This document shows, in pieces, positions 2,100-55,623 of a DNA stretch of 64,000 nucleotides; the stretch's first letter is position 1, and each line of letters starts with the position of its first letter. The translations under genes were made by a program, and so were the position numbers. The DNA is from Heteronotia binoei (taxonomy: Eukaryota). The notes beneath the pieces are model-generated. The model was not told where the DNA came from. It searched no databases and worked only from the letters and a program-made list of their open reading frames with translations. The DNA lies in contig NC_083223.1 in the NCBI RefSeq assembly GCF_032191835.1, forward strand, positions 62,806,001-62,870,000, written 5' to 3'.

Positions 2100-3047
2100 A
2101 TGGAGGGGGGGGGGAGATTAAAAAAATTCAGACAAGGAGCCTCACCAGGGGTAAACAAGTCTGTTGCCACAGCAATAAGCCAAGATGCCATTGAAAATTT
2201 ACAGAATATGATGATGGCAGGCTTCAAACAAAATCAAGATACATTAGAGGGAATTAAAGTGGAGCTCAAAGAAGAAATAAGAAAGACTAATGAAAAAGTC
2301 AATGAATTTCAAAAGCAATTGTTAATTAACAGTCAACAAACCCACAAGTTATCAGGTAAAGTGGAAAAATTGGATGAGAAAATGATAACCATGTCTGCTA
2401 CACTACAAGAATGGAAAGATAAATGTAGAGAGATTGATGACAGAACTATTAAATTAGAAATGGAGGTTCCAGAATGTCCCAGAGGAAAAGGCAGAAGATA
2501 TACCCAGAAAAATTAATGAGCTCCTAGCGTCAAGTGTAGAGGCGGTGTTAAAGGACATCAAACAAAAGATTGATTGAGTGGCCTCATCCTATACTAAGAA
2601 CTCAAATTTGCTGAGGGAAATCCACATAAAATTTATGAAAGTTTTAACTTGTGAAGCCCTTTTAAGAACTACAAAGGAGTGGAACTGGTTTGGAAAGAAA
2701 ACAAAATTAAAATCTTAAAAGAAGTTCCCTGGAGTATGAGTCAGAGAAGAAATAGATACAAGAAATTAACAGCCTGGTTGATGGAAAATGATATTCAATT
2801 CAGATGGCAAATACCAGAAGGTGTTCTCTTTACCTTTCAGGAAAAAAGGTTTAATCTGAACTCAGTACATAAAGCACAAGATTTTTTGGATCATTATGCA
2901 GAAGTTAATAGACAATCATCGGAGTCTGAGGAAGAAGGAGAATGTGAATATGAGGAAGAAGAGGATAGTGGGAAAGTAGGAAAGAGAAAAAAAGAAAAAG
3001 AAAAAGAGGGAGAAGATGAAAATGAGATCCCAAACCCAAAAGGATAA
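2100..3047 (+). pseudogene. L1 ORF1p (coiled coil, RRM, CTD), frameshifted
   Basis: Heptad-rich LEGIKVELKEEIRKTNEKV... and C-terminal IQFRWQIPEGVLFTFQEKRFNLNSVHKAQDFL, followed by an acidic/basic tail. Confidence 0.8.
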
Positions 3048-3083
3048 AGAAATTATGTTAGATAGAAATAATCAGAAGAAATA

Positions 3084-3540
3084 ATGGATAGGGAAGGATT
3101 AAAAATAACATCGGTTAACATTAACGACCTGAATGCGCCCCAGAAAAGGAAAAAGATTTTTCTACAATTGAAAAAATTACAAGCTGATGTAATATATTTG
3201 AAAGAAACACATATTATACAGAAGAATGTAAAATATTTACAAAACAAGAAATTAGGAAAATTGTATACAGCATCAGATCAAGTGAAAAAGAGAGGGGTTG
3301 CAATCTATGTTAAGGATAAGATTGAATCCCAATTATTGTATGCGGCAGAGGATGGCAGAGTGCTCCTGGTTGAAATTATACATAATGACAAAAAAAAGTG
3401 CTGTTAGCTAATATTTACAAAAAATGAAAAACAAGAGAAATTTTACAAGACTATATATGATAAATTTGTTGGATTGGACTATCAAGAACATTGTATCATA
3501 GGTGATTTTAATGCTGTATTTGATACGGAATTAGACCAAT
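3084..3540 (+). pseudogene. L1 ORF2 APE endonuclease N-terminus, truncated
   Basis: ITSVNINDLN, YLKETH, KKRGVAI, DGRVLLV and IIGDFNAV motifs. Confidence 0.88.
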
Positions 3541-5030: not shown

Positions 5031-5120
5031 CCTAACTTAATCCCTAACTTTGTGTGGTTTGTAACATGAATTTTATGGTTATTGTTTCTTGTTTCTTGTT
5101 TAACTGTTTTTTCTTTTTAG

Positions 5121-5745
5121 ATGCTGTTGTTCCTGGCCAGAGGAGCTGAGTTCTCATCTGTGGACACAGTTATGTGTTTGGGGCTGCACATCAGGCTCGG
5201 AGAACTTTGGTCGGCTCTTTGCTGGGACTCAGCCAATGGGTCACTATTGAATGGCATGGTTACAAGGGTCTTCATTGGCCTGGCCTGCTGCCATTGTTAT
5301 TCTACAGGAATGCTGGCCCTCCTCCCCAAGTCCTAGTTATTCACCTGTGTGGGAATGATCTCAGGCTAGTAAAAGGCAAGGTGTTGGCCTTGCAGGCCAG
5401 GGATGATTTTAGGGACCATTATAATATGGCCTGGGACCATTATAATATGGCCTGGGACCATTACAATATGGCCAGATATGATTCCCCGCCTTGTTTGCCG
5501 TAGTGTTTGGGACCCTGCAGGCATCGAGAGGGCCCGTCACAAGACTAGTAAGGAGATTAGGAAACCCTTAGTAGGGGGGGCGGGTTGGGCCACTACCTGC
5601 CCCATCTGGATATTTCTCTTAAGTTCTCTTACCTCTACGGAGGGGATGGGGGCATCTCTCTGAAAAGGGTAATATGCTTTTCTTGAGAGACCTTCGGCAA
5701 GGGCTGTGGGTGGCATTGGGCCTTCTGGTGGGTGCTAAGGCCTAA
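5121..5745 (+). pseudogene. SGNH/GDSL hydrolase ORF of Ngaro copy 1
   Basis: ICGHSYV (block I), HLCGNDL (block III) and a DGxH-like block V. Preceded by a splice acceptor ttctttttag at 5119-5120. Confidence 0.82.
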
Positions 5746-5766
5746 GCAGAGGCTTGTCCTTAGTGG

Positions 5767-6516
5767 TGGCAGGTTTTACTGTGTTTACAGTACTATGCGG
5801 CTAGGGGAGGACCAGAAAGCATCCCCTCTTGGGGGGTTAGGGGTCTGTCAGGATCAACCTTGGAGTTTGATGACCTGGGTTGGGAGAATGCAGACCGTCC
5901 TTTAAGGCTTGACTGGAGGGGGCATTCCATTGAGATGTGCATCTGGTGGTTGGACCCTCTGGGCTTGCCCTCTTGCTGGGCTGGTCTGGCGGGAGCTGTG
6001 CCACACAGCTCCGGCTGGGGGCCGGATCCCTCGCCCGTTGAATTGCAGGGGAGGGGTCTGTTGACTGTACTGTGCGTCTAGTGGACGGACCCTCTGGGGC
6101 TTGCCTTCTTGCTGAGCTGGCCTGGAGGGAGCTGTGAAGTACCGCTTCGGCTGGGGGCCGGGTCCCTCGCCCGTTGAATGGCAGGGGAGGTGTCTGTTGA
6201 GACCCCTGGTTCTGACCAGGCCGCAGTTTCAGTACTGGAGAGTGCCTTCCATTGAGATGTGCGTCTAGTGGACAGACCCTCTGGGGATTGCCTTCTTGCT
6301 GAGCTGACCTGGCAGGAGCTGTGAAGTACAGCTTTGGCTGGGGGCTGGGTCCCTCGACTGTGGAATGGCAGGGGAGGTGTCTGTTGAGACCCCTGGCCCT
6401 GACCAAGACACAGTTTCAGTTAGCCCTTGCTGTTTGTTACTTATACTTTAATAAAGTGGTCCTTAGTTATACCCAATACCTTGTGTCTGACTCTTTAATC
6501 CGATTTGGGGGACAAT
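5767..6516 (+). repeat. Ngaro repeat B1 with three tandem GC-rich units (about 135-190 bp)
   Basis: Near-identical to 6888-7402 plus 8839-8942. Has AATAAA near the end and terminates gggggacaat. Confidence 0.88.
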
Positions 6517-6887
6517 TCATCTCTAGCAGCCAGCAGCATCGCTGCTTGACTGCAGGGATGTCTTTGCCTTCCTGGAAGGAAAAGGGAGGACTTCTGCTGC
6601 CCGTTTGGGTGCAATTCTGAGGGGGCGGAGCTTGCTGCTGTAACAGCAGCACCATCCGCCCCCTACCTCAGTCTTTGACAAATGATCGGCCCTCCCTCCC
6701 ACCCTGTTTGTTATGTAGGCAAGCGCTGGTCGCCTCATAGGATTGGGGGACCGGGTAGGAATTTTTTGCTCCTCAGCTGATTGGAAGTTTGCTGCGGGTG
6801 TTTTTTCGCCTACCCTACATAGCAGTTCAGTGGGTTGCAGATTTGGCTATAGGGAGGCGCTGTTAAATAGGTTGGTCACTTTAGATT
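6517..6887 (+). repeat. Ngaro repeat A2
   Basis: Unique segment sandwiched between B1 and B2. Structurally analogous to the 5' end of copy 2 (ttgcc.tcc...aagg..gagg; ctcagtctt). Confidence 0.7.
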
Positions 6888-8942
6888 TGGCAGGTTTTAC
6901 TGTGCTTTTGGTACTGTGCAGCTAGGGGAGGACCAGAAAGCATCCCCTCTTGAGGGGTTAGGAGTCTGGCAGGATCAACCTTGGGGTTTGATGACCCGGA
7001 GTGGGAGAATGAAGACCATCCTTTAAGGCTCAACTGGAGGGGGCCTTCCATTGAGACGTGCATCTGGCGGTTGGACCCTCTGGGGCTTGCCTTCTTGCTG
7101 GGCTGGGCTGGCCTGGCGGGAGCTGTGCCACACAGCTCTGGCTGGGAGCCAGGTCCCTCGCCGTTGAATGGCGGGGGAGGGGTCTGTTGAGACCCCTGGC
7201 CCTGACCAGGCCGCAGTTTTGGTACTGGAGGGTGCCTTCCATTGAGATGTGCATCTAGTGGACAGACCCTCTGGGGATTGCCTTCTTGCTGAGCTGACCT
7301 GGCAGGAGCTGTGAAGTACAGCTTCGGCTGGGGGATGGGTCCCTCGACTGTGGAATGGCAGGGGAGGTGTCTGTTGAGACCCCTGGCCCTGACCAAGACA
7401 CACCAAGGCAACTGGATCGAGGCGGTGTGGCAGTGCTGATGTTATTAGATCTGTCGGCTGCATTTGACACAGTCGACCATCAGCTGCTGATCCACCGCCT
7501 CACCGACATAGGGGTAGGGGGTTGGCCTTACAATGGCTTTCCTCCTTCCTCATGGGTCGGGGACAAAGGGTGGCAATTGGGGGTGAACGATCCCAGAGGC
7601 GCACACTAGATTGTGGGGTGCCTCAGGGAGCAGTTCTCTCCCCGATGTTATTTAACATCTATATGTGCCCCCTTGCCCAGATTGTCCGGAGGTTTGGGCT
7701 GGGTTGCCATCAATATGCAGATGACACCCAGCTCTATCTGCTAATGGACGGCCGGCCCGCCTCTGCCCCGGGGAGCCTAGATCAGGCCCTGCAGGCTGTT
7801 GCAACATGGCTTAGGCTGAGTGGGCTGAAGCTGAACCCAGCGAAGACAGAGGTTCTCTGTGTGGGTCGTGGCGCTCTGGGGAAGGAAATATCTCTCCCAA
7901 CCTTTGACGGTGCGCCGCTGAAGGCGGCGCAGCGGGTAAAGAGCTTGGGTGTTTTACTGGAGCCTTCATTATCAATGGAGGCCCAGATAACAGCCACTGC
8001 CAAGTCAGCATTTTTTCATCTGAAGCGGGCGAGGCAGTTGGCCCCTTTCCTAGAGCGCCGGGACCTAGCAACGGTGATCCATGCGACGGTCACCTCAAGA
8101 TTGGGCTACTGTAACGCCCTCTACATGGGGCTGCCTCTGTGCCGGACCCGGAGATTGCAGCTAGTGCAGAACGCGGCGGCCAGGCTGCTGCTTGGCCTCC
8201 CAAGATGGGAGCATATACGGCCGGGGCTACGCAAACTGCACTGGCTGCCGATTGTATACCGGGTCCAGTACAAAGTGCTGGTGATTACCTTTAAAGCCCT
8301 ATATGGCTGAGGACCGACCTACCTGAGGGACCGTCTCTCCCCGTATGAGCCCCAGAGAGCACTGAGGTCAGTAGGTAAAAACAGATTGACCACCCCTGGG
8401 CCAAAAGAAGTTAAACTTCGGACTACCTATGCACGGGCCTTCTCTACCGCGGCCCCATGCTTGTGGAATCAACTCCCAGAGGAGGTGCGGGCCCTGCGGA
8501 ACCTTGATCAGTTCCGCAGGGCCTGCAAGACCACCCTTTTCAAACAGGCATTCATGAACGGCTGACCAAGCCCACAAAGAAACATCAAAATGGTCCAATC
8601 TGGAGATCCGCCATCATTACATAAATTGACAGGCATAGCGTCGATCAATAACGGTACTGCCAGATTTAACTTAATGTTTTTAGACTCAGTAACTGTTTTA
8701 ACTAATGTATTAATCGGTTTGGGGTTAATTTAATGTTTTGTTAAATGTATTGTTATTTTGCTGTTGTTAGCTGCCCTGAGCCTGCTTGGCGGGGGAGGGC
8801 GGGATATAAATAAAATTTTACTTACTTACTTACTTACACTTTCTGTTAGCCTTTGCCATTTGTTACTTATACTTTAATAAAGGGGCCCTTAGTTATACCC
8901 AATACCTTGCGTCTGACTCTTTATTCCAACTTGGGGGGCAAT
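6888..8942 (+). repeat. Ngaro repeat B2 (two tandem units), split by an L2 insertion
   Basis: Matches B1 up to gaccaagacaca (7402), resumes at about 8839 and ends ggggggcaat. Confidence 0.88.
7403..8836 (+). mobile_element. L2 LINE, 5'-truncated, with (CTTA)n tail
   Basis: LLDLSAAFDTVDH, GVPQGAVLSP and YADDTQL motifs. L2-type 3' end gccctgagcc...gggcgggatataaat. Confidence 0.93.
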
Positions 8943-39085: not shown

Positions 39086-39727
39086 CTATAAAGAGGACCA
39101 TAAGGTGTTAAAGACAAGCATTAAGAACAGCATGCACTATTATTATACTTTCAAAGGAGTGTTAATTCATAAAACCTTGGGGGTAAGCCAAAAGATGCTG
39201 TATGAAAGATCTGTTCCTGACAATACAATCTCCCTATGAGACACTTTCACACTTTTATAATGTTTTTGCAAAATATGGCCTTGAGCCTGATATTCAAGAA
39301 GTTACAGACTTATATAGTACACATAATTAAAAACATTTTGAGGAGATGATGTTGCAATGCATGCTGAAGGGAAAGGTCTTCAGATGGTTAGTAGAAGTAG
39401 GATCAGTATCCTTTAGCAAGTACAATAGTATCATAATATGAACTCCAGGTTAATCTGATAGATTTTGCTACAGAGCCCACTGAAAGACCTATGAAACACT
39501 GGTGATGGCAGCAAAGAAATGCTTACAGTAGCGAAGTAGTAACATCAGCTTGTTCACAGCCATCCTGATTGCTCAGGGTAGCTCAACCAAAAACTGAGCC
39601 TTTATTGTCTCAGGAATACACAATTAGCTGTGATACTTTTACCAAGATTTTTTGGTGATAGGTACTGAAAATATGCCTTGATCTGGCTATCAATTGTACC
39701 ACAGGCACACCAGAAGTAAGCCCTAAT

Positions 39728-41075
39728 TAGGCTTCCCAACCCCCCCCCGGCCCTGGCGGGGGACACCCGTATTTGCAGCCTCCTCCCCCGCTCTCCAAAA
39801 ATCCGGAAGCGGGGGGGGGGGGGAACGGCGCCAATTATGCTGCCACTCTCCCCAATGAGTTTCCCAGTCCTTATTATTGGGCGGCAGCAGGTAACGTTTT
39901 GTGCCGCCGCCGCAGCCGCAACACCACGCCACCAGCACAGGCAGCAGCCGCCACCCACCGCTGTGGCCCGAGCTACAGGCTGCCTGAGGAGAGCAGCAGA
40001 GGGTCTCCTCTCCCTCCATCCCACCAGGCCCTGGCGAAGGAAGAGGCCGGCCAAGGCCCACCAACCCCAACCTGCGGCGGCTGCAGCAGCACGGAGCCTT
40101 GTCCCCCCCCCACTAGAAAGCCCACCACCAAGCAGCCAGGTGGGAGGCAGCAGAGGAGGAGAGGAGAAGCGAAACGGGGAGGGGAGAGGAGAGGAGGGGG
40201 CGCTGGCCAGACGCCTGCCTGGGCTACCCGGCCTTTGTTTCCCGGCACCTCCGGGAGCCTCTCCTCTCCCAGCAGCACGGCCTCCTATCACATCCCCCCC
40301 CTTTCTTGGCCCTACCTGGCGTTTTTTTTCTTTCTTTTTTTTTGGCCCTCATTAGCAGGCTGGGAGTTCAATGTTGCCCATGGCAACCGGCTCCGCTTCT
40401 TCCACCTTCATTTTCCTCACTTCCCCCCCTCCCCGCTTGGCCCAGATGTGTGGCTTTGCCTTGGCCTGGGCGCTTGCGGAGAGAGAGAGGGGAGGGAAGG
40501 GGAGCCCTGCCTCAGGAATGGTGGAAGAGGGGGGGAGATTGGTCCAGGGGTCGTTTTTGTAAACAAATAGGTGCTGCCGCAGCGGCGGGGGGGGTGCGCG
40601 CCGCCGAGGCCAGGCGAGGCAGGAGTCCGGCTCGTGCGCCCTCCCAAGGTAAGCCCAGCCTTTCTTCTCCTCCCTCCCTCCCTCCCACGGGGGCCGGCGC
40701 TGCCTGCTTGGGCATGAGAGAACCTCCACCTTTCCTGCCTCCCGTGCCGTGCCGTCCCTCCCCGACCCTGCGTCGTCAGCGAAGGAGTGGAGCGAGGCAT
40801 GTGCCGGGAGCAGCGGCGGCCCAGGGCTGGGGGACTTGTGGCGAGCAGCAGCGCTGAGGCGAGGCAAGGCTAAGGAGAAGGTGCCCCTATCCTTCATTAT
40901 TTCCTATGGAGGGAAGGGATTTAAAAGATGTGCGGTCTCTTTAAATGTGATGGCCAGAACTCCCTTGAAGTTCAATTATGTTTGTCACACCCATGTTCCT
41001 GGCTCCGCCTCTAATGTCTCCTGGCTCCACCCCCAAAGTCCCCAGATATTTCTTGAATTGGACTTGGCAACCCTA
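39728..41075. mobile_element. Non-autonomous hAT element with about 1.07 kb of CpG-rich interior
   Basis: Ends taggcttccca / tggcaacccta and TSD gccctaat / ggcccaat. Termini shared with the element at 62600-63393. Confidence 0.85.
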
Positions 41076-41305: not shown

Positions 41306-42098
41306 AAATATCTCTACATTAAAATGATGTAGCCAATCTGCCCAATTATGTAAGTTCACCTGGTGTGGCAAAAACCGTAACATTCCCATTTCAGACAGCA
41401 TTTAGTGCAGGGTAAATTAATTGATTTGACAGATTTCGCTGTACTTGTTTCTACACTCTGGGTATTTTCAGGTTGTTTTTTTTAACTTCAGAATAATTTT
41501 ATTTCAGAAATCATATACAAGATAACAAATATACAAAGCTAAAATTGACAGTTTACAAATAGATTCCGGCTCCTGTCCAGAAGCAGGCTTCACAGCCTTG
41601 CTTCTGGAGGCCGTTTTGCCTCCTCACAAGGCGGAGGAAGAGACAGGGCAGCATCAGAGGTGGGGGTGGAACAGGCACACCTAGAGGCGGGCTCCACTCC
41701 CTCCTCTCAGTCTTCTTGCAGGCAGACATTTTGAAGGCTATTTCTGTGCTTGTTAGCTCTTCGGCCTACTGTTGCTAGCCATTTTTGTAATTTTATTGCA
41801 GGTGGCCATTTTAAGGGCTTTTATTTGTGTATTGTTAGACATGCCTAAAGGGCAAGGAAAGCCAAAAGGCAAGGCCCCTGCTCCTAAACAGCCCAGGCGA
41901 CCTGCACCTCCTAAGCGCCCTGCGCCACAGCCCTTGTCATTGGATGAAGATTACAGCATTTTTGAGTAGTCATGCCTAATGGACAGGGCAAATCCAAGGG
42001 CAAAGGCCCTGTGCCAAGACCGCAGCGACCTGTTCCTAAGTGCTCAGCACCTTTGCCTTCATCATCTGACGAGGAGGATGGCTCTTTTGAGCAGTCTG

Positions 42099-42100
42099 CT

Positions 42101-42139
<39 letters not shown>

Positions 42140-45100
42140 TTTGGGATTTATATCCCGCCCTTCCCACAAGTGGCTCAGGGCGGCTTCCAGTGATAGATCC
42201 AACAAAATTACAGTATTTAAACATATAAAGGGATCAGCATTTAAAACAGATAAAAACAGATAAAACCATGGTTATCAATAAATATTAATAAATATTAATA
42301 AATATTTCAACTGTATATAAAAGAAAGAAATCCGGCAAGTTACATTAAAATTCTCAAGCTAGGTATAGGCTAGCCGGAAGAGGGTCGTCTTACAGGCCCT
42401 GCGGAACTGTACAAGGTCCTGCAGGGCCCTCACCTCTTCCGGCAGCTGATTCCACCATGTAGGGGCCATAACAGAGAAAGCCATTTCTCTGGTGGATTTC
42501 AAACGGGCTTCCTTCGGCCCAGGGATGGTAAAGAGATTTTGTGTTCCCGACCTCAGTACTCTCTGGGGAACGTGCGGGGAAAGACGGTCCTTCAGGTAGA
42601 CAGGTCCCAAGCCATATAGGGCTTTAAAGGTGATAACCAGCACCTTGTACCGGACTCGGTATATTACTGGAAGCCAGTGCAGGGTCCGAAGACCCGGCTG
42701 AATGTGTTCCCACTTTGGGAGACCCAATAACAGCCGGGCCGCAGCATTCTGCACCAGCTGCAATTTCCGAGTTCGGGACAGGGGCAGCCCCATGTAGAGG
42801 GCATTACAGTAGTCTAACCTCGAGGTGACCGTGGCATGGATCACTGTTGCTAGGTCGTCGCGCTCCAAAAAGGGGGCCAACTGCCTTGCCCGCCTAAGGT
42901 GAAAAAACGCGGACTTGGCAGCGGCTGCTATCTGAGCCTCCATCTTTAAGGAAGGCTCCAACAGCACCCCCAAGCTCCTGACCCTGTCCGCCGCTATCAG
43001 CGGCGCACCGTCAAAGGCTGGTAGGGGGATTCCCCTTTCCGGACCGCGGCGACCCAAGCAAAGGACCTCTGTCTTCGCAGGGTTAAGCTTCAGCCCGCTC
43101 AGTCTGAGCCATTCAGCCACGGCATATAGTGCCCGATCTAGATTTTCCGGGACGCAGGTCGGCTGGCCATCCATCAGTAGATAGAGCTGGGTGTCATCAG
43201 CATACTGATGACACCCTAGCCCGTACCTTCGGGCAATCTGGGCAAGAGGTCGCATATAGATGTTAAATAACATCGGGGAGAGAACCGCCCCCTGGGGCAC
43301 ACCACAGTCAAGTGTGCACCTCCGGGACAGCTCCCCCCCAACTGCGACCCTTTGTCCCCGACCTTCAAGGAAAGAGGAAAGCCACTGTAAAGCCAACCCC
43401 TGAATCCCTGCGTCGGCGAGGCGACCCTTCAGTAGCCGATGGTCGACCGTGTCGAACGCAGCCGACAGGTCTAACAGCATCAGCACCGCCGAGCCGCCCT
43501 GATCCAGATGCCGTTGAAGGTCATCCACTAGGGCGACCAGCACCGTCTCCGTCCCATGTCCCGGGCGAAAGCCGGACTGAAATGGGTCAAGGATGGAAGC
43601 ATCCTCCAGGAAAGTCTGCAGCTGCATCGCCACTGCCCTCTCAATAAGTTTGCCCAAAAAGGGCAAATTTGAGACCGGCCGATAGTGTACCAATTGGGCC
43701 GGGTCTAAAGATGGTTTCTTTAAGAGGGGACGGACCACAGCCTCTTTGAGCGGCGTTGGAAAGTGCCCTTCCCTCAGGGATCTATTTATGATATCCCGTA
43801 TAGGATATCTAAGGTCACCCTGGCAAGATTTAATAAGCCAGGAAGGGCATGGGTCCAATTTACAGGTAGTTGGGCGAGCAGCTAAGAGGATCCTGTCAAC
43901 TTCCTCCAGGCTGAGGGGTTCGAAGTCATCCAGCATATAATCCGAAGACAGGCTCGGAGCCTCGAGTTCGCTAACTGTCTCAAAATTGGCAGAGGAGTCG
44001 GGGCGGAGTGACGCGATTTTATCCACAAAAAATTTCGCAAAAGCCTCACAGCCTATTTCCAATTCAATAGAATTTGGTCTGCCTTGCGGCAGTGTTGTAA
44101 GTCCTCTAATTATGTCGAACAATTGGGCCGGGCGCGAAGTTGCGGACGCAATCTTAGCCGCAAAGAACGCTTTCTTTGCGGCTTTGATTGCCATCTCATA
44201 GGCCTTCAAACTCTCTCTATAAGATGTTCGGGTCACTTCGTCTCGAGTACGCCGCCATTGCCTCTCTAGCCTTCTGAGTCCCCGCTTTTGTTGCCGCAGC
44301 CCCTGATTGAACCAGGGCGACGGCTTCGGGCGGGAACGCAGAGGGCGCTTGGGTGCGACCTCCTCGATGGCGCTGGAGAGCCCATCGTTCCAGGACTCTA
44401 CCAGATCATCCAGGGAGTCGCCAGTAGGCCAGGTGTCCCGAAGGGCCGTTAGGAACCGTTCCGGGTCCATCTGGCTCCGCGGGTGAGCTAAAATACGCTC
44501 TCCGCCTAAACAGGTTTTGGGTGACACTCCCATACGAGCCTTAAGGGCAAAGTGATCTGACCATGGCACTGCTTCCATTGCAATATCAGTCACTGGTATT
44601 CCGGCCGCAAAGACCAGGTCTAACATGTGTCCCGCCTGATGAGTGGGCGTTGTAATAACCTGGGAGAGTCCTAGTGTCGCCATGGATGACACCAGGTCCG
44701 TCGCCTGGCCGGAGGCCGCGTCGTCAGCATGGACATTGAAGTCACCCAAGACCAGAAGCCTTGGGTGCTCCAACGCCCAGCCCGCCGCGGCCTCCACCAG
44801 GGACGGTAAGGCGCTGGTCGGTGCGTTAGGCGGTCGGTACACCAGCCAGATCGCCAACCCCTCCCCAACATCCCACATCAGGCCAACACATTCTATGCCT
44901 GGAATCTCTGGGGCCGGAAGGGCCCTAAAGGAGTAAGCCTCTCGTATGAGAAGTGCCACCCCTCCCCCCCGCCCGCTAGTCCGTGACTGGTGGAAGACCG
45001 AGTATCCCGGGGGAACGGTCTGGGAGAGAGCTACCGTCTCCCCTTCACGCACCCAGGTCTCGGTCACGCAAGCCAGGTCCATGTCCTGCTCGGTCAGAAA

Positions 45101-46879
45101 CTCTCGCAGGACAGAGGTCTTATTATTAATGGACCTGGCATTGCATAACACCAGTGACGGAGGCGAGTAATTCAGCCTGGCCTTACTACTTGTCACCGTC
45201 GGGATGGGACGGAGGCTGGAAGGGGGTCGAGCACTATTATGTCTCGATCTCCTTCCCTTATAACTCTGCCTCGTCCCACCGTCGTATCTTCCCCTCCCCA
45301 GTAGTACTGGTATCCCTAGGCCAGTCATCTTGTTAATGTTCCCTAGTCCGATGGAACCTTTAGAGCTACCCTCTTCTTCTCACCCCTCCTTCCCGCCGAT
45401 CTATCTGTTTTTATAAATTAATTAACTGATCTAATTAAACTAATCTGCCAATTACTATATAGCTATTTAATTAATTAGCCCCCTAACTTCTCAATCATTA
45501 GCTAAGAATCAAATTAATTTAATCTAAAAGTTCATTAATTGTAAAAACCCTCCCAATAAATATCTTTCCTTAATTAATTTGCCACCAATCGATTTTCCCA
45601 AGCTCGTTAATTATAAAACCCTCCCAATAATCTCTACCCTAATTAACTTGCTACTAATCAACTTTCAATTAGCTAATAATCAACCTCTTAATAGCCTATA
45701 AACCAAACCAATCTTATCGTTACACTGGCAGTTTAGATCTGCTGGGGTGGGGGATTAATACAAGGATGTAAACAATTTAGTAAAGTGCAGTAGTTTTTAA
45801 AGTGCTGAAGTCTATAAGGTGCCTTGATCTTATTTCCGTATCTTTGTCTTTCCGTATCTTTGTCTTTATCTTCGGGCGTGCTGAATTCCATGTGGAGCTT
45901 GTTCTTTAAAGTGGTGGGAGGGGAGGGGGTTGTTAAGAGGTAGGCAACTCGGTAGGGGAGTCGTTGGGATGATCTTAGGATGACTATATGGCCAGCCGGT
46001 GGACTCGGGAGGCCCACTGTGCAATCTCGGGGGGCCCAGAGGGGTATGAGCCCCGCTACGTCCCCTTCGTCACACAGGCTCCGCCCTGGTCAGCAGTTCA
46101 GCTCGGCCCCTTTCGATGTTATCCGGGCCCTTCGGCCACCAGTCGAGTCCCAACGCGATGCCCTACAACCACTCCCACGCCGGGAAGGGAGGGGGGGGAT
46201 ACGTCCCCAAATTCCGCCGCCACACACAGTTGATACAGTGGTCGGCACCACCAACAACCCCTCACTAGTCCCTTCCTCGGTCTCCTCCGGCCCCCAGCTC
46301 AAGCCCACAGCTCGGCTCCTCCAGCTCACGGCTCAAAGTCTCTGCCTCCACCGCGCTCCACCACGGCCCCGGCTGGCTCGGCTCGCTCCTCCCGCTATGC
46401 GGGCGCCGCCCGTTGTATTCCACGCCGCCCGCCGCCCGTTCTCCACTCAGTTCCGCGGCCCGGCGCGGCTCGGCTCGGCACCCCAGCAGGCCAGCAAGCC
46501 GTTGCAGCAGCTCACGTCGCCCGCCGCCGTTCTCTACCTGGCTCCACAGCCCCGGCGTGTCGCGGCTCAGTCCGGCACTGTAGCAGGCCAGGAGCACCGT
46601 CCGCTGTCGATCACTCCGCTCGCCTCGCCCGCCGTCACTCTCCACTCCACTCCGCGGCTTGGAGCGGTGCGGCTCGGCCCAGCGCCACAGCACTCAGAAA
46701 GATTTCCAATAGGAGAGTGGGGTAATAATACTTGAAATTTTCCCCTCACCTTCCTCTCAGCTGCAGTTGCAAGTCACTCAATAAAAACGGGTAGCTTAAC
46801 TTAGCTTGTGTTTAGTTGTGCGGCGGTGAAAGCTGTTGTCTCGAGGAGCTCCGGTGTTAGGGCTCCTTCACCGCCGCCA
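42099..46879 (-). mobile_element. Full-length L2 LINE (about 4.8 kb)
   Basis: (TAAA)n tail at 42099-42142, intact ORF2, about 1.55 kb 5' region and a terminal hairpin at 46820-46877. The 5' boundary is uncertain by about 40 nt. Confidence 0.9.
42359..45328 (-). CDS. L2 ORF2, APE endonuclease plus reverse transcriptase, 989 aa, uninterrupted
   Basis: APE: CNARS, TETW, VYRPP, GDFNVH, LDLV, SDHF. RT: LLDLSAAFDTVDH, GVPQGAVLSP, QYADDTQL. Confidence 0.97.
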   Translation of the reverse strand: MTGLGIPVLLGRGRYDGGTRQSYKGRRSRHNSARPPSSLRPIPTVTSSKARLNYSPPSLVLCNARSINNKTSVLREFLTEQDMDLACVTETWVREGETVALSQTVPPGYSVFHQSRTSGRGGGVALLIREAYSFRALPAPEIPGIECVGLMWDVGEGLAIWLVYRPPNAPTSALPSLVEAAAGWALEHPRLLVLGDFNVHADDAASGQATDLVSSMATLGLSQVITTPTHQAGHMLDLVFAAGIPVTDIAMEAVPWSDHFALKARMGVSPKTCLGGERILAHPRSQMDPERFLTALRDTWPTGDSLDDLVESWNDGLSSAIEEVAPKRPLRSRPKPSPWFNQGLRQQKRGLRRLERQWRRTRDEVTRTSYRESLKAYEMAIKAAKKAFFAAKIASATSRPAQLFDIIRGLTTLPQGRPNSIELEIGCEAFAKFFVDKIASLRPDSSANFETVSELEAPSLSSDYMLDDFEPLSLEEVDRILLAARPTTCKLDPCPSWLIKSCQGDLRYPIRDIINRSLREGHFPTPLKEAVVRPLLKKPSLDPAQLVHYRPVSNLPFLGKLIERAVAMQLQTFLEDASILDPFQSGFRPGHGTETVLVALVDDLQRHLDQGGSAVLMLLDLSAAFDTVDHRLLKGRLADAGIQGLALQWLSSFLEGRGQRVAVGGELSRRCTLDCGVPQGAVLSPMLFNIYMRPLAQIARRYGLGCHQYADDTQLYLLMDGQPTCVPENLDRALYAVAEWLRLSGLKLNPAKTEVLCLGRRGPERGIPLPAFDGAPLIAADRVRSLGVLLEPSLKMEAQIAAAAKSAFFHLRRARQLAPFLERDDLATVIHATVTSRLDYCNALYMGLPLSRTRKLQLVQNAAARLLLGLPKWEHIQPGLRTLHWLPVIYRVRYKVLVITFKALYGLGPVYLKDRLSPHVPQRVLRSGTQNLFTIPGPKEARLKSTREMAFSVMAPTWWNQLPEEVRALQDLVQFRRACKTTLFRLAYT

Positions 46880-47723
46880 ATGATGAGTTTAGGAGGTTCA
46901 AAACAAAAGCAATGTTTGAGTTTTAGACAGAATAGCTGACTTGGAGGGTTTGTGTAGGAGGCAGACAGTTGTATTGTGTGGTCAGGCTTCTAAGGCAGAT
47001 AAGCGGGCTGCCAAGAAGCGCTTCCAGGAGGATATCCTTAATCACTTGTCTTGAAAGCAAGTCTTCCGTGGACAAAATGGAGGGGGTGTCACCCCTTCCA
47101 GCGGAGGTGCCCGCTGTGGATGCTGTGCAGAATTGGAAGTTGGGTAGGGGTGAGTTTGCACAACACACTACCACAGCTTAGCCCTGGGGGCCATGGGGGC
47201 AGTCTGCCACCTTTGGGCCGGTTGTTAATAGCCAGCCTGCAGCTTTTAATAATCCCCAGCCTTGTGCTTGGGGTCTTAACCTGGCTAACCCTTGGGGTCC
47301 TTGGGGAGGCCTACCCAGCCAGTTCCCAGGAACGCCTGGGGCACCATATGGTGGCTGGGGGGTTTCTTATCCTTGGGGTTCATGATATTCTGCCATACCT
47401 GCTAAGGCTTTACCTTTTGATGATCTGGCCTTACCTCTTGGTTTATCACTTGTTGCCGGCTGCCAAGGATAAGATATTGAAAGGGGAATTCATGCAGGAG
47501 GTGGAATGCGCATGCTCTAGAGGAAGAAGCCTTGGCTCGTCCCTCTCCGAGACAAGAAAGAGATTAAGACCGAAAGGAATGTAAATAGTGTGGTTACGGG
47601 GGCATAAATAACCTGCAGAGTAGTTAAAGAGGCAAAAGGCGTGTTGAGACGAGAAATAGCAGTCAGAAGTAGGGAGTATTTAGTTAGTGAAATAAAAGAG
47701 TAAGGGCGATTAACAGCTTAGAA

Positions 47724-48690
47724 ATGGCTGCTGCAATGGTTAAACAGCTTTCAGAAAAGATGGCACAATTTCAGGCGTTAATGTTAGAATCTCATAACAA
47801 GATACAAGAAGCCATTGCCGAAGTAAAAAATGAGGTTAGTCAGCTAAATAAGGAGTTAAAAGATGCTAAAGAGCTGGCTAGCCAGGCAGACAAGATGGCT
47901 TCAGCAAATAAGCAGGACATAACTTATTTAAAGGAATAGATCAAGGGGCTTTCAGACAGGGCAAGGAGGGCAAATCTAATTTTCCATGGCATTTCAGAAG
48001 ATATTGATTCACGACATTTGGAAGACGGTTTGATAAAATGGATTTCAGAACAAGAAACAGGGATAACGATTACCGCCGACCACTTAGAAAGAGTGCACAG
48101 GATAAGGAGTAGGAGGACTGGAGGGGAGCCCAGACCGGTAATAATTAAATTTGCAAGAGAAAAAGTTCAGCAACAAGTGTTTCTGGCCTTGAAGAAAAAG
48201 AAAGGATTGGAATATAAAGGAAAAAAAGTATTTGTAAGACAAGACTTTTGTAATAAAACACTGGAAGAAAAAAGACGAATGAAGCCATTTGCAGACAAGC
48301 TTCTTCAGAACAAGATACTGTTTACATGGGCTTACCCAGCCAGTATTGAGCCTTCTACACGTCAGGAGAAACGACAGAGGACGCGATCATAAGATGTTCA
48401 AGGGAGGAGGAAGAAGCTTCTAAGAAAGGGAAGTACCCCATAAATAAGAGGGAGGGGTGTTATGGTCTTAAATGAAGGAAAGGATAGAGAATATAGGAGA
48501 GGGAGGAGATGTGCCCACCCCAAGGTACAGGGAGGAGAGAGAGATCACCCCAAATGCAAGCCCTATACCTGAAGAGAGGGGGGAGAAGGGTAAGGGAAAA
48601 GGGGGAAGGAGGGGGAAAGGGAAAAGGGAGAGAAGTATATTAGAAGTAACTATTCAGCCAGGGAAGGGAGAGAAGGGTTACGAATATGGT
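47724..48690 (+). pseudogene. L1 ORF1p
   Basis: Coiled coil followed by RRANLIFHGISE, LERVHRI and PRPVIIKF. Contains stops and frameshifts. Confidence 0.88.
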
Positions 48691-51600
48691 TAAAGCTTTG
48701 AAAATGCTCTCACTGAATGTCAATGGATTAGGTTCAGATTTGAAAAGATATAGATTAGCAAGATTTGTAAGGCAACAAAATATAGATATAATGTGCGTAC
48801 AAGAAACACATAAGGCAAAGGATGACACTAAACCATTGATCAAGCACCCAGGGTGGAAGGTGTTAGCTGAAGCAAGGAGTGGGGCCAAAGCGAGAGGAGT
48901 AGCAATTTTAGCACATACAAGGATTGATATCAGGTTACTAGATATGAAATAACAACCCATCCAATATGAATCTCAGATCGTGCCCCATTGATTATAGAAT
49001 TGGAGACAAGAGATGAGCAAATTAGAAGGATATGGAGATTTAATAGTATGGTGTTAGCAAAAAAATAAGATAGACATTATATGGAAAATCAGGTGAAGCA
49101 ATATTTCAGAGAAAATAGGGGAACAGTGGCCACGGATATTCTGTGGGAGGCAGCAAAGGCAGTACTAAGAGGACACTGTATGATGAAGGAAAAAGAAATT
49201 TTAAAAGAATGGTATGCTAATAAAACACAGACACTCCAGGAATTAGGTGCACTACAGAGTAGTCAAGGTATAAGATTTTGTCCTGATAGGAAAAAAAAGA
49301 TTGGAGAGATTAGGAAGCAATTGGACTCTCTTGACTTTAGGACACTATGGAGGAAGCAAACTATGGTAAGGAACGAGTTTCAAAGGGACTCAATAAATTC
49401 TGTTAGGAGACTAGCTAACTATTTTAAGACTAGGAAAGAAAAGCAAAGGGTGAAAAGTATTAGAACGCAAGGAAATATTACGCAGAATCCGAGAGAAATC
49501 AGGCAAGCGTTTCAAGAGTTTTATAAGGCGTTATATGCCAGGAGAGATATAACAGATTTTATGGAAAGAAGTGGAGAATGTCTGAAAGACTTAGACAAAG
49601 AGAGTTTGGAGAAGGAAATCACACTTCAGGAAATAGAGGAGGTAGTGAGCAGTTTAAAATTAGGCAAATCCCTGGGGCCAGATGGATTCACTGCAGATTT
49701 TTACAAAGAAATGAAGAAGATATTGATCCTGGAACTACAACAGGTGTTCAATATGATATTGAAAGGAGGGAAGGCTCCCGACTCTTAGAGGAAGGCCGAG
49801 ATAACTATATTAAAACCTCAGAAAGACCCTCGGGAAGTTGTCTCATATAGACCAATCAGGATTAATCAGGATTACAAAATATTTGCTAAAATATTGGCAA
49901 ACAGACTTCGAAATATATTACCTTGTATAATAAAAGAGGACCAATATGGATTCGTGAAGAATAGGAGCATAGCACATCCTATAAGGAATATACTAAATGT
50001 ACTTCATCATAGACATTCTGGGCAATTGGGATTGCTTAAATTGGATGCATATAAGGCATTTGATACATTGTCCCATGAGTTCCTGTGGTCCACAATGACA
50101 AAGTATGGGATAGGTTTATTATTTTTAAAAGCTATACAGGAGGTTTATAGGGAGGGTACAGCAGTAGTAGGGGTAAATAATGAACACACGGAACAATTCC
50201 CAATTGAGAGAGGGGTAAGGCAGGGGTGCCCGCTCTCCCCAACCTTATTTATAATGACAATAGAACAACTGGCAGAAAGGATCAGGAATGCAGGTAGAAA
50301 GAAGGTTGTAGGATAGGTAAGTTAGAAATGAAAATTAACTTATTTGCAGATGACATAATTATGATAATGTCGAACCCGAAAGAGGCTATTAGGGAAACGA
50401 AAATTATATTGGATAATTTTGAAGCATCTTCAGGTTTAAGAATTAATATGGAAAAATCAGAAATAATGTATTTCAACGTTAACTTGGAGGAAAAGAAAGA
50501 AAGTAATAGGTTAACTAATATAGGGATGGGAGTTAAGAAATGTAAATATTTAGGAATAGAAATATATAAAAATATTAATAGGATAGTGGAGGATAATTAT
50601 AAAAAAGTATTGGAGAAGATAGCGAGGGATATGCAGCAGTGGGGGGTAAGACACATGAGTCTGACTACTAAAATAAGAAGTGTATCGATGTTTTGGATGT
50701 CTAGGTTATTATATTTATTTCAAACGATACCATTGGAGATTGATAAACAAAAAATTAGTAACTGGAATACTAAAATAAGGGAATGGATATTTGGAAATAA
50801 GAAATCTAGAATTGCAAAAAAGCTAGTATACAATCATAAATTGGATTTGGGATGGGGAGTTCCAGATATAACTAATTATTATGAAGCTTTTCAGCTTAAA
50901 GCATTGTTAGAGATAGAGAGGGAAGATGATCAGAAATGGGTAAGGTTTGAGAATGAAGCTAATAACGGAGTAGGAAAACATGGTATCTTTACGAATATGG
51001 AGGAGAGGGACTTTAATTTAAATGAGGGACCAAGGAAGTGTGGGTTAATGGTGTGGAAGAAGTGGCAGCCAAAATGGTTAAATCGGGTATCTAGATGGAC
51101 GCCATTAGAAACGTTAATGGAGGAAGACAGGGATTACAGGTGGAGGGAATTACTCGGTTTTAAAGGATACAGAAGGGTAGAAGATTTGTTAATAATGGAT
51201 AAGTTAAAACCATTACAAGACTTGCAAGAAGCAGTACGGGTACAACACTGGCTTAAAGCTGTAGGATTGTATACTAAAGTTAAAAAGAAAGTGGAGAAAA
51301 GTAATATAAATGAAGAGGAACCTATGGAAAAGATTTATAAATTAATGGGTAAAACAAAAAAAGGAATAGTAAGCATTTTATACAGGAGTATGACTTCAGA
51401 CACCGAAGGAGTAATAGGTCACCTTCAACAGATATGGAGTTCAGAAGGCCAAATAACGAAACGAACAGTAGAAAAGTTAATGGAAGGTTTAAAAAAAGTT
51501 AAAATTTACAAAGTTAGGGAAATGGAATTGAAATTCTTTACTAAATGGTATAGAACTCCGGCTTCCTTAGCGAACATGTTTTCAGGGTTGAGCCCTAAAT

Positions 51601-52050
51601 GTTGGCACTGTAAGAAAGAGAAGGGATGGTTCGCCCACATGTGGTGGGAGTGCCCTGAAGCTAATAGATTATGGGAAATGGTAGTGGGAATGATAAAGAA
51701 GTTTTTTCAGGTTGAACCAAGAATAGACTTTGAATTTATGAAGATGAGTATACTAGGGAATGGGATAACAGGGAAGAATAATCAAGACTTATTAAAAGTA
51801 ATGATATCAGCGGGCAAAGCAGTATTGGAAGGATAAAAGTAAATGGAAGGAAAGAATCTGTCATGATTATCTTTTTGATTTTGTTCAATCACACATAGCC
51901 GCCATAATGACTCAGGAAGGGTCATGGGAGGAAAGAAGAACAAGGATTAAGGAAAAGTGGTCGATCTACCTGAAGTGGGCAAAAGAAGAAAAGAAAGCAG
52001 ACATTCAGTGGAAGCTCCAAGTTCTTTTTCCCTGGCTGGAAGATGATGTA
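48686..52050 (+). pseudogene. L1 ORF2p (EN with an internal deletion, RT, C-terminal CCHC)
   Basis: SLNVNGL, VQETH, LDAYKAFD, QGCPLSP, LFADD and CWHC...HMWWEC. EN jumps from DMK to an SDRAP motif. Confidence 0.92.
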
Positions 52051-52779
52051 TAGACTAAGGGGGGTGGGATGGGGGGAAAGTTGTTAAACGGAATGAGAGG
52101 AAGAGTGTAAGAGAAATGGACAATCAATAACAATAAAAATATACTTTAAAAAAAAAGAAAGAAAGGGGAATTCATGGACCTATTTTCTCTGCTCTATAGG
52201 GAGGTGGAGAAAAAGGACAAAGAGGATTTGGATGACCGGGAAAAGGAGAAAATCAAGAGGCTTAAAGTGGATAGGACATGGACAAACTGGGTGACCGGGT
52301 TCATTATTTATGCCAGAATTATTGTCCGGTCATAGCCATGGAGGGCCACTTTCCTTTTTCAGTATTTTGGCATCATTTACAAAAGCTACACCAGCTTTAC
52401 CGGCCCGACCTGGCTTCAATATGACGAGGTGTTCAGAATGAGGGCGGCTTTGAACCCAGCCCTTCAGTGGGATCAGATTCAGCTGCAGCTGTAGCTGCAG
52501 GTTATGTCTCCAGCACGACCTAACTTGGGTGATAGGTCAGACAGTGGGCATGTTGTGCACCGCACAGCCACTGCTTCTGACAACCGCAGCAGTGCGGGGC
52601 AGGTGGTTCAACCCCACCCGTTTTGTTGGGAGTTTGGGCCCCTGGGGGTGTGTGGTAAAAAGAACTGCCCATGCAAACATAAGCGCCCTCTTTGTGGGGG
52701 CTCTGATTCCTTCACTAATTGTTCCAGGGGTAGTTTCAGGCAGGGACAGCGCAAGCAGGGCCTGGGCAGTGCAGATAAG

Positions 52780-53757
52780 CCATTTGGTAAAGGGTCCCAG
52801 CCCAATAAAAGCGACAGTGCTTGATGCATGGCTCCGTGATTATCCAAAGGATGAAGATCAGCTTTATTTGTTAAATGGTTTTAGGTTTGGGTTTGGAATT
52901 CCTTTTCAGGGCCCCAGAAAGCCGTTTATGGCCAATAACTTGAAGTAAGTTATAGGGATGGAGCACATAGTTTGTCAGAAGATTGGGAAGGAATTAGCCG
53001 TGGGTAGGGTGAGTGGCCCATTTTCCACACTCCTTGGGAGTACCTTGAGGGTTCCACATTGGGCATTGTGCCTAAGAAAGCCCCAGGAGAGTTCAGATTG
53101 ATTCACCATTTATCTTATCCCCATGGGGAATCGGTGAATGACGCCATACCAGAGAATTTGTGTACTGCGTGGTACACATCTTTTGATGTAGCATGCGGGA
53201 GGACCTTGTACTATGGAGGGAGTTTTTTAACCTCATTTAAAGGTGTCTCCTTTTAGAGGGCTGAGTCACAGCTGGAGGCTGAGCCGCAAATAGCATCAGA
53301 TGCAGCTGGGTCCCTTGGGTTTGGCATTTTCTTTAGCGGACACTGGTGCGCAGAGGTATGGCCACTGGAATGGGTAGATGCGGGATGGAACAGAGATTTG
53401 ACTTTCTTGGAGTTCTTCCTGATTTTGGTAGCTGTTTGGCTATGGGGGAACAAGTTGGCAAACCACACAGTCCACTTTTGGTGTGACAACTTAGCCGTGG
53501 TGCATGTTATCAATTTCCTCACTTCCAAATCCCACAGGGTGATGAGGCTGGTGTGGGCCTTCACTTTCCATTGCCTGAGGCTTAATATTTTATTTTTTGC
53601 CAAGCATGTGCCTGGGGTGGCTAATGGGAAGGCTGACATTCTCTTTCGCAAACAGATGCAGAGGTTTCACCAGCTGGCCCTAGATGCAGATCTTCTCCTG
53701 ACAATGATGCTCCCCGGGATATGGATGATTGGCGGGTCGAGGCTGGCAGAGCGATAA
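52780..53757 (+). pseudogene. Ngaro pol: RT N-terminus joined to RNase H, RT catalytic core deleted
   Basis: KGPSPIK...GIVPKKAPGEFRLIHHLSYP...YTSFDVA joins ...EDLVLW at about 53195, then SDAAG, LEF, WCDN and HVPGVANxxAD. Confidence 0.88.
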
Positions 53758-54575
53758 GTCTCGCCATTGCTCCTAGTACCAGAGAATCGTACAACAAAGT
53801 TTTGGGAGCAAAGTTGGTTACAAAAGGGGTGGCCCCTTCCGGTGGAGCAATTACTCCACTGTAGTGTATTTTTAAGGCGCAGGGGGTTAGCAGTACGATC
53901 TATTCGGGGCCGGCTGTCTGCATTGGCCTTCGCTAGTGCGGCTTTGGGTTTCCAGGAGAATACCTGTGACTTCCGCATTAAGTAAAGGTTGGAAGGTTGG
54001 TCTAGAGAAGTTGGGCCCTGCCGGGATTCTCGGCAACCATTTTTCTCCTGCAGTTTTTAGAGGTTTACGATCGATCTGGGGCCAGGTGTGCGTGTTGGAG
54101 TATGAAACGCTGCTTTTTCATGCTGCCTCTCTCATGGCATTTTTCGGGGCTCATTGGGTGAGTTAGCGGGTGGCTCAGTCCAAAAGGGACATGTCAGTGA
54201 GGGCCTTGATGGCCCATGACAGATGTTTGGCTGGCGGATCTGTATATGTTACAGTCCGTTGTTCCAAGACCAATCAGCTGCAATGGAGGGATACTATTAG
54301 TTTGGGTTCCTGTTCTGATCTCAAGATCTGTTCTGTAGCGGCTTTAACACACTATAGTCCCTTGATGAAGCATCAGTTTTGGACTGTAACGTGCAAGGCC
54401 CTTGCTATGCTGGGTCTGTCGGGGATTAAGTTCGGCACCCATTCCTTCCGTATAGGAGCAGCATCTACTGCGACTGCCCCCAGAGTATTACCTGCCTTCC
54501 ATTCAGAAGCTGGGTAGGTGGCGTTCCTCGGCCTATAAGGGCTATGCTCGCCCTCTTGCACTGCAATAATTGGCA
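53725..54575 (+). pseudogene. Ngaro tyrosine recombinase
   Basis: GRLSALAF, FHAASLMAFFGA, VRCSKTNQ and HSFRIGAAST, with frameshifts. Confidence 0.88.
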
Positions 54576-54622
54576 CCATGTTATTAAGGAGCCATGTTAT
54601 TCATCGTTTCTTCTTTTCTCAG

Positions 54623-55207
54623 GCAATGTGGTCCGTGGAGAGAGATGACACATCCTCATATGTGGACACAGCTTCGTGTTTTGGGCTGCCCATCAGGCCA
54701 GGAGGACTTCGGCCAGGTCACAGCTGGGGCTCAGCAAGTGGGCCACCATTGAATGGCGTGGACAGCGGGGTCTCCATTGGTCGGGCCTGTTGCCCCTCTT
54801 GTTTGAAGATGTGCACGTGTTGCTGCCACATGTTGTGGTGATACATCTGGGTGGTAATGATTTAGGCCTGCTCAAGGGAAAAGCCCTTGTGTTGCAAGCC
54901 AAAGATGACTTTAGAGTTATAAAGAGGCATTGGCCACAGGCTTTGATCGTGTGGTCAGCCATAATCCCATGCCGCGTATGGCGTGTGGCTTGGGACCCAC
55001 GGGCAATTGAGAAAGCTTGCCGCAAAGCCAATTTAGAACTTAAAAGAGCCCTCGAGGTGGGGTTTGGGCCACTTTCTTCCTCACCCTTGGATCGGAGCTG
55101 ATTGCGCAGATTTATACAGGCGCGATGGTGTACATCTGTCAGACAAGGGTAGTGATGCCTTTTTAGAGGATTTGAAACTTGGGCTTCAGGAAGTGTTAGG
55201 CGTTTAG
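54623..55207 (+). pseudogene. SGNH/GDSL hydrolase ORF of Ngaro copy 2
   Basis: ICGHSFV (Ser nucleophile), RGLHW, HLGGNDL and RDGVHL (Asp/His). One early TGA and one frameshift. Acceptor AG at 54621-54622. Confidence 0.88.
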
Positions 55208-55244
55208 TGGGCGCGGCTGCCTAAGCAGAGGCTTGGCCTTGCAG

Positions 55245-55623
55245 TGGCTGGGTTTTGGCCTAAACTTCCGTTATGAAGCTCGGTGAGCACCTGTAGCACC
55301 CTAGTTTTGGGGTACGGGGTCTCACTAAATCATTCCTGGACCGTGCGGGATGGTTGAGTGATGAAGCGGACTATCTTGGGTTTGCATGGATTGATTCGCC
55401 CGTTAGCCATGTGGCTGGGGGTTGGAACTCCAGGGCATAACCTGTGGCCAGACCTAGGGGCAGGGTGGCTCGTCCGTCATGCGGCAGGGGAGGGGTATTT
55501 CGTCCCCTGGCCCTGCCGTGCTGCCTGTTATGTTATAGCCCTTGTGTTAATGTAATAAATAAAGTGGCCCTTTAGTTGCCCAAGCCCTTGTGTCCGTCTC
55601 TTCCTTCTGTCTGGGGGGGCAAT
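55245..55623 (+). repeat. Ngaro copy 2 repeat B (single)
   Basis: Homologous to B of copy 1 (gcaggggagg.gt...cccctggccctg; aataaagtgg.cc; ggggggcaat end). Confidence 0.75.

Follow-up and report, generated by a model that had tools for sequence, protein, structure and literature searches.

In active relatives of the element described here, the SGNH hydrolase of Ngaro-type tyrosine recombinase (YR) retrotransposons is very probably expressed from a spliced RNA in which the head of gag is joined to a phase-1 acceptor in front of the SGNH frame. The element is represented by two decayed copies, both on the + strand of a 64 kb stretch of the Heteronotia binoei genome (NC_083223.1, positions 62,806,001 to 62,870,000; hereafter the window), with copy 1 extending over about 3.5-8.9 kb and copy 2 from about 41.8 kb to 55.6 kb. 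The initial annotation of this DNA had proposed that the 5' part of gag is spliced onto the SGNH acceptor, and this proposal is supported by phase-1 acceptors in other copies, by a locus that lacks the intron (L016), by fusion models and by a protein encoded on a short contig (P0095). Both window copies are dead, with in-frame stops, frameshifts and two insertions of long interspersed nuclear elements (LINEs), and neither can make the fusion today because an in-frame TGA, absent from the initial annotation, lies between the acceptor and the CGHS motif in both.

In the proposed route the unspliced RNA would yield Gag, reverse transcriptase (RT)/RNase H and YR and would also serve as the genome, while the spliced RNA would skip about 3-4 kb and join the first 120-200 codons of gag to the phase-1 acceptor just behind the YR gene. 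The product would be a protein of 320-400 amino acids. Its basic tail is predicted to be followed by a pair of short amphipathic helices, then by a disordered linker and finally by an esterase that is catalytically complete. We infer both that the spliceosome joins the RNA of this family and which GT it would choose. It is predicted that the shared Gag head would bring the esterase into the RNA-protein particle of the element, where it might act on lipids or membranes, as has been proposed for the ORF1p protein of the zebrafish LINE ZfL2-1.

Conservation of the acceptor

The two AGs named in the initial annotation are present at 5119-5120 (copy 1) and 54621-54622 (copy 2), ahead of CGHS codons that start at 5159 and 54661, and both are in phase 1. 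The long pyrimidine tracts it described are also there, with 15 of 19 positions being pyrimidines in copy 1 and 17 of 19 in copy 2; on the + strand of the window these values are reached by 41 and 6, respectively, of 2256 YAGs. The copy 2 acceptor is the best of its element, and that of copy 1 ties with three other sites in its own. A branch-point-like YTNAY sequence lies at -18 to -20 in both copies and occurs in 7 of 10 element loci, but is too common to weigh much. The equal spacing that had been pointed out, 38 nucleotides (nt) after the AG in both copies, is real but is no family constant. Among other loci the gap from the AG to the codon of the catalytic G is 14-41 nt, and P0090, the model closest to copy 1 (73% identity), has 14 codons there, so that the identical spacing within the window is partly luck; it is the phase that is conserved.

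This conservation was assessed in a scan of metagenome contigs covering 21 of 64 parts, which gave 25 loci, of which 15 were scored, with matches that fall short of the first catalytic motif left out. Ten loci were compared, namely the two window copies and eight metagenome loci (L002, L004, L005, L006, L007, L008, L010 and L013) chosen because they include the start of SGNH and lack an ATG immediately ahead of the motif fold; L003, a near-copy of L002, was omitted. YR was shown upstream in seven of the eight, the exception being L010. The initial annotation had suggested testing whether acceptor and phase recur in other copies. When the AG with the best pyrimidine tract is taken, no more than 120 nt from the catalytic motif, it is in phase 1 in 10/10 loci, against 14/52 for the other AGs. 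Over 30 parameter sets the result is 10/10 in 28 and 9/10 in 2. When the same AG rule is anchored inside SGNH the phases are mixed and the scores are 0.68-0.71, against 0.85, and three SGNH relatives with an ATG of their own (L017, L023, L025) show no consistent phase. Four read-through open reading frames (ORFs; P0010, P0018, P0097, P0110) encode pyrimidine-coded residues, then L/T/S-G and then 12 residues up to the motif, and carry an imprint of the acceptor site at the protein level.

Joined forms

Locus L006 has the unspliced arrangement, in which the end of YR is followed by a T-tract, CAG and SGNH. From the G of the acceptor AG onwards L016 is 94.9% identical to L006 over 1225 nt, whereas the DNA upstream of this point is unrelated. 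L016 has no intron: an ATG and 127 open codons, basic and repetitive, run in phase 1 into the esterase, and this upstream part ends in AGGG, like the gag exon of the window. A TATA-like motif precedes the ATG and 2.8 kb of AT-rich DNA lies behind the element. L016 has the appearance of a spliced RNA that was copied into the genome.

A second joined form is P0095, a Gag-N/SGNH protein of 394 amino acids, examined as protein, whose sole source is a Logan contig of 1677 nt. This contig is too short to hold pol and YR, because fewer than 500 nt are left beyond the ORF. In an SGNH tree made by a quick method its sister (support 99) is P0018, whose ORF begins inside the pyrimidine tract and reads through from there, unspliced. 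P0095 and P0018 match at the junction, each having 12 residues before the motif, of which the first are GE.

The sequence ACGTCATA was seen at both ends of the short element (L016:1-21 and 1685-1706; L006:1625-1645), and this weak 21-nt inverted match (E 3.3) may mark the element termini. No split repeats were seen in L016.

The Gag head and the fusion models

RefSeq contains Gag-N/SGNH models for seven lizard families, represented by Eublepharis, Heteronotia, Hemicordylus, Elgaria, Anolis, Pogona and Rhineura. One and the same protein often recurs from locus to locus and is one isoform among several. In all of these models a basic start is followed by an acidic patch, a pair of ILxRLxALE helices and a linker that varies, and in 8 of the 10 gecko models listed with a gag-type head a G is followed by exactly 12 residues before CGHS. 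When the gag N-terminus of copy 2 (with X at breaks) was aligned to the N-termini of the fusions in a frameshift-aware manner, z was 1.6-14.3 and exceeded 5 in 11/14. In the window this head runs on into the conserved C-terminal half of gag, and therefore the N-termini of the models are tied to ORF1. A tblastn search of 12 fusion proteins against the copy 2 gag N-terminus gave nothing useful, although the profile and the frameshift-aware alignment did match. Among 6689 candidates no full Gag protein with the N-terminus of P0026 was found, this being a low-complexity query that also missed its own cluster. Long low-complexity N-termini also precede SGNH in models from Zootoca, Paroedura, frog, newt, caecilian and abalone, which does not imply that they are gag. 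A scan of viral contigs gave 58 pattern matches, none of them a relative.

The initial annotation had placed this fusion within 47143-54665; donor and acceptor do lie there, but the gag head starts at 41972 and is mostly outside that span. In copy 2 its two parts together amount to about 122 amino acids.

The predicted donor

Both GTs proposed as donors are present as described, at 47150-47151 (AGGG|GTGAGT) and 47144-47145, and each is in phase 1 in the gag frame, so that, as in env-type expression, an acceptor behind pol is in frame with the donor. GGTRAGT occurs six times on the + strand of the window and once in gag, and 47150 is the only site in the gag N-terminus that scores 7/9 or more. 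The glycine that would be formed by splicing at 47150 aligns with the junction glycine of the fusion model P0075.

The predicted protein

Structure prediction of the fusion, suggested in the initial annotation, returned an SGNH fold. AlphaFold2 run on P0075 with 35 sequences gave helices at residues 33-52 and 74-95, a disordered linker and an SGNH core mostly above 90 in predicted local distance difference test (pLDDT) score, and a fold search with this model found SGNH hydrolases (2hsj, E 7.9e-8; PAF acetylhydrolase). An ESM Atlas search with residues 1-135 of P0075 gave no usable match. The catalytic S, N, D and H are kept in 32, 35, 30 and 29 of 35 aligned proteins, respectively; intact relatives thus have the SGNH fold with its Ser-Asp-His triad and oxyanion Asn, while the window copies are broken. 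The initial annotation had likened the product to ZfL2-1 ORF1p. For the esterase this likeness stands, since the sole PDB match of the SGNH profile by sequence is the ZfL2-1 ORF1p esterase (4C1B, E 1.3e-6); for the putative coiled coil, two helices of 20-22 amino acids are predicted.

Weighing the splice against other routes

Several points weigh against a Gag-N/SGNH splice. The evidence for the splice comes from DNA and protein sequences, and the RefSeq fusions are predictions. The donor is the weakest link: 47150 matches 7/9 consensus positions, as do nine sites in all among the 180 GTs of the element, a better donor lies at 53009 in RT (phase 0), and no intact element with both donor and acceptor is among the sequences obtained. 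The donor and the gag identity of L016 would rest on likeness, namely its basic, repetitive N-terminus. The ten loci are related, so that the phase count is not a set of ten independent trials, yet they are not near-copies: compared over 90 residues, the metagenome loci are 24-36% identical to the window copies, and they form several groups. In a survey of 217 SGNH proteins, 27 match the squamate Gag-N profile, although 16 of these were used to build it; 13 have YR, not gag, upstream, 4 have RT or the C-terminal half of gag, 23 have a segment of a fish host gene, 45 have fewer than 25 upstream residues and 105 are unclassified.

It is quite unlikely that the acceptor is real but is served by a different donor, be it the second GT (47144), some other gag site, a 5' exon that does not code for protein, or exons of the host further upstream. 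Copy 2 gag does have two phase-1 GTs only six bases apart, amphibian models place different upstream parts on the same SGNH start (P0142 against P0160, P0193 against P0054), in a keratin model (P0032) the join is at the acceptor, and an AG (41837-41838) directly before the gag ATG hints at a 5' untranslated exon. However, with a non-coding exon most squamate sequences would have their first ATG no earlier than the catalytic serine, giving a dead enzyme, and it is 47150 that has the full G|GTGAGT and whose glycine matches the model junction. A splice from 47144 would likewise produce a fusion of Gag-N and SGNH, with two residues fewer.

Expression of SGNH from an upstream ATG of its own, by re-initiation or by a frameshift from YR, is very unlikely. 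The initial annotation had argued that no in-frame ATG precedes CGHS, and this is true only back to the TGA (54646-54648 in copy 2; 5147-5149 in copy 1), since in-frame ATGs lie beyond these stops at 54544 in copy 2 and at 5066 and 5075 in copy 1; the argument is weaker than was stated. An own ATG or a YR frameshift, which it had named as speaking against the splice, fares unevenly among the loci. An upstream in-frame ATG is present in 5/10, including both window copies, but is absent from the other 5/10, and two of the ATGs (54544 and one in L007) are by-products of a YR tyrosine codon (TAT-G). Likewise, the SGNH frame overlaps YR in 3/7 mapped loci, but in 4/7 a frameshift is impossible, a stop in the SGNH frame following the YR stop. 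In the accessible text of PMC9210276 all Xenopus ORFs overlap, and Poulter and Butler are quoted in that of PMC13003380 as proposing frameshifts for YR. A route through an own ATG or a frameshift would leave both the phase-1 acceptor and L016 unexplained.

A short intron (54514-54622, 109 nt) that joins YR at LG|RW to SGNH, giving a recombinase-esterase fusion, is highly improbable as the main route and may be a source of a minor isoform. The G|GTAGGT at 54514 is in phase 1 in the YR frame, and some of the 13 proteins with YR upstream are joined at the LG|RW motif (P0081, P0057). Against this, a GT at the YR motif is found in only 2/7 loci, YR would lose its catalytic tyrosine, and L016 and P0095 are without YR. 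Finally, that the fusions are artefacts of gene prediction and L016 a chance internal deletion is barely credible and already largely excluded: many SGNH models are clearly chimeric (keratin, vomeronasal receptor, phosphatase) and gene predictors do seek phase-compatible AGs, but the phase result was drawn from raw DNA, P0095 lies on a contig with under 500 spare bases, and the L016 breakpoint is within one base of the AG with the frame kept, both of which a chance deletion would need.

Relation to known systems

A hydrolase ORF is already described in YR retrotransposons, in the Ngaro-like Xenopus elements DIRS-53_XT and DIRS-54_XT (PMC9210276), which the present element resembles, as far as they are described there, in having gag, RT/RNase H, YR and an SGNH ORF and, as far as copy 1 preserves them, 3' split direct repeats. 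In the available part of that paper SGNH is counted as an ORF of its own, the fourth and overlapping, with "no proven function", whereas here it would be the second exon of a Gag-N fusion; the function of the hydrolase in the Ngaro class is given as unknown in the accessible text of PMC9210276, PMC6681497 and PMC7192593. Splicing of a Ngaro hydrolase is not mentioned in the text available from PMC9210276, PMC6681497, PMC9341512, PMC3905857, PMC13343379, PMC13003380 and PMC7192593, and in that of PMC9210276 no word starts with "splic" or "intron". Literature searches, with the founding papers, Repbase and one supplement outside their coverage, gave no report of a spliced Gag-hydrolase RNA. What was already described is the class of element with its hydrolase ORF; the proposed spliced Gag-hydrolase route would be new.

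From what is accessible of PMC3905857, in which Ngaro and DIRS go unmentioned, ZfL2-1 ORF1p dimerises via a coiled coil, hydrolyses esters and binds liposomes. The protein proposed here is like it in having a homologous SGNH esterase preceded by a helical region, basic peptides and a poorly conserved linker. ZfL2-1 is a LINE, however, and makes its protein from one unspliced ORF1 with a self-associating coiled coil of five heptads (PMC3905857, in the part available), whereas the present element, which would also make full-length Gag, would acquire its two predicted helices of 20-22 amino acids from Gag through splicing. Gag-N/SGNH would therefore work like an ORF1p of the esterase type while being no member of that group; in the window SGNH lies behind YR and is not the first ORF of a non-LTR (long terminal repeat) element.

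The expression strategy itself has parallels among LTR elements and retroviruses. Retroviral env is translated from a spliced subgenomic RNA, and Ty1/copia elements reportedly make a spliced subgenomic Gag RNA. As in those systems, one promoter would give an unspliced genomic RNA and a spliced RNA that skips pol. Unlike env-type RNAs, the spliced RNA would keep 120-200 Gag residues as a head, its product would be a soluble esterase, and the element uses a tyrosine recombinase.

For two decades the Ngaro hydrolase ORF has appeared in descriptions of these elements with neither a function nor a translation route, and the splice would explain how it is produced and would define the real protein as a Gag head plus esterase. 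It would also mean that YR retrotransposons likely use alternative splicing, as LTR elements do, and would account for dozens of lizard and amphibian gene models called "uncharacterized". Convergence of the product on the layout of esterase-type LINE ORF1p would suggest that both kinds of element need a lipid esterase attached to their RNA-protein particle.

Anatomy of the window copies

The coordinates of both copies are given in Table 1. The order gag, RT/RNase H, YR on one strand, as in Ngaro, was recovered from matches to database proteins and from motifs, including the YR motifs HSFRIG and GRW..S.Y; Pfam gave no YR or RT match on the decayed pieces of the window copies. SGNH lies behind YR, as in vertebrate Ngaro elements, and is identified by PF13472 and by tblastn against intact relatives (E 1e-40). 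No methyltransferase domain was found in the window translations, no profile search having been made for it. The closest named proteins to the window copies are gecko models.

Table 1. Features of the two Ngaro-type copies, in window coordinates.
Feature	Position	Strand	Evidence or remark
Copy 1 branch-point-like TTAAC (-18), pyrimidine tract, acceptor AG	5097..5120	+	
Copy 1 SGNH esterase exon; TGA at 5147, frameshifts	5121..5750	+	73% to P0090
Copy 1 split direct repeats B1 (5767-6516), A2 (6517-6887), B2 (6888-7400 + 8836-8942, cut by LINE)	5767..8942	+	self-comparison
Copy 2 gag start, diverged duplicate (42 codons, basic, ended by a stop)	41841..41969	+	67% identity to 41967-42096
Copy 2 gag N-terminus part 1: ATG, basic tail, SSSDEE acidic patch	41972..42103	+	Gag-N profile iE 7.6e-7, translation
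LINE interrupting the gag N-terminus (RT ORF 42359-45379)	42101..46917	-	boundaries approximate
Copy 2 gag N-terminus part 2: helix 1, basic linker, helix 2, linker to predicted donor	46920..47149	+	frameshift near 47048
Predicted splice donor G|GTGAGT, phase 1	47150..47155	+	weaker alternative GT at 47144
Predicted intron: remaining gag, RT/RNase H, YR	47150..54622	+	inferred; 7473 nt now, ~2.8 kb without L1
L1-type LINE in gag	47495..52176	+	RVT_1 1.3e-28; 16-bp target duplication 47479-47494 / 52161-52176
Gag C-terminal half: conserved block, Cys/His knuckle, stops present	52165..52824	+	P0036 match E 2e-14
RT + RNase H remnants, RT partly deleted	52830..53757	+	
Tyrosine recombinase remnant, stop at 54567	53715..54569	+	rival phase-1 donor G|GTAGGT at 54514
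Copy 2 branch-point-like YTNAY (-20), pyrimidine tract, acceptor AG	54597..54622	+	
Copy 2 SGNH esterase exon; TGA at 54646, frameshift near 55070-55100; GHS, GGND, DGVH motifs kept	54623..55207	+	PF13472 E 1e-4
Copy 2 single 3' B-type repeat	55210..55623	+	matches ends of copy 1 B1 and B2

Copy 1 has kept RNase H, YR, the acceptor, SGNH and the B1-A2-B2 repeats and has lost gag. The 5' part of an L1-type LINE (coiled-coil ORF1 and the start of the endonuclease; 900-3540) adjoins it, replacing gag and most of RT. Its split repeats have the form B1-spacer-B2 with the 5' end lost, while copy 2 carries a single B; the A2 of copy 1 has no match in the DNA upstream of copy 2, and the two belong to different subfamilies. 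In copy 2 the L1-type LINE sits within the predicted intron. The LINE frame at 42359-45379 (- strand), encoding endonuclease/RT, is open over 1006 codons and is a young insertion, with decayed kin at 7.4-8.8, 20.2-21.3 and 24.4-25.2 kb.

The first 131 nt of copy 2 gag are doubled in tandem (41836-42096, 67% identity), which reflects either an old duplication or two nested subfamilies. A T-rich tract and an AG stand two bases 5' of the gag ATG (41810-41843), and similar read-through extensions are seen in P0085 and P0087, which hints at a 5' untranslated intron in such elements. About 1 kb upstream of copy 2 there is a GC-rich island (39600-40900) that resembles the promoter of a host gene.

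SGNH in related elements and host genes

In a related YR-type element (L017, L018:1059-4823, L021) the SGNH ORF precedes gag, RT and RNase H and starts at an ATG of its own, which is a different solution to the expression of the esterase. In amphibian models (P0054, P0055, P0057, P0061, P0160, P0161) a gag-like part runs into the beginning of YR, and some of them switch early from YR to SGNH; if these models are right, YR itself may come from a spliced RNA rather than from a frameshift.

In bony fish, a large host protein, to which models named ZNF318-like or CSDE1 are similar, ends in a Ngaro-type SGNH (P0041, P0043, P0044, P0048, P0049, P0052, P0140, P0185; P0052 is on a Logan contig of 3784 nt). 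The fish SGNH sequences form one tree group, the fish locus L001 (L001:4054-4680) has a phase-1 acceptor 41 nt before the motif, and the protein looks like an old domestication of the esterase exon. Proteins of 1200-3100 amino acids with 2-6 tandem SGNH domains fall into two tree groups (P0072, P0073, P0074, P0076, P0077, P0094; P0084, P0092), and it is possible that these are host genes built by repetition of the SGNH exon.

With somewhat less than even confidence, we would extend the proposal further: the Gag-N/SGNH splice would be ancestral in hydrolase-bearing Ngaro elements across animals, the spliced RNA would itself be recopied to DNA as a short element (L016), the phase-1 acceptor would act as a portable last exon captured several times by host genes (the ZNF318-like fish gene, the tandem-SGNH genes), and the Gag head would load a lipid esterase into the particle.

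Keratin, vomeronasal receptor and phosphatase models (P0032, P0035, P0083) are also joined to a Ngaro SGNH, and reflect either exon trapping or prediction artefacts; in the keratin model the join is 12 residues before the motif, as the acceptor predicts.

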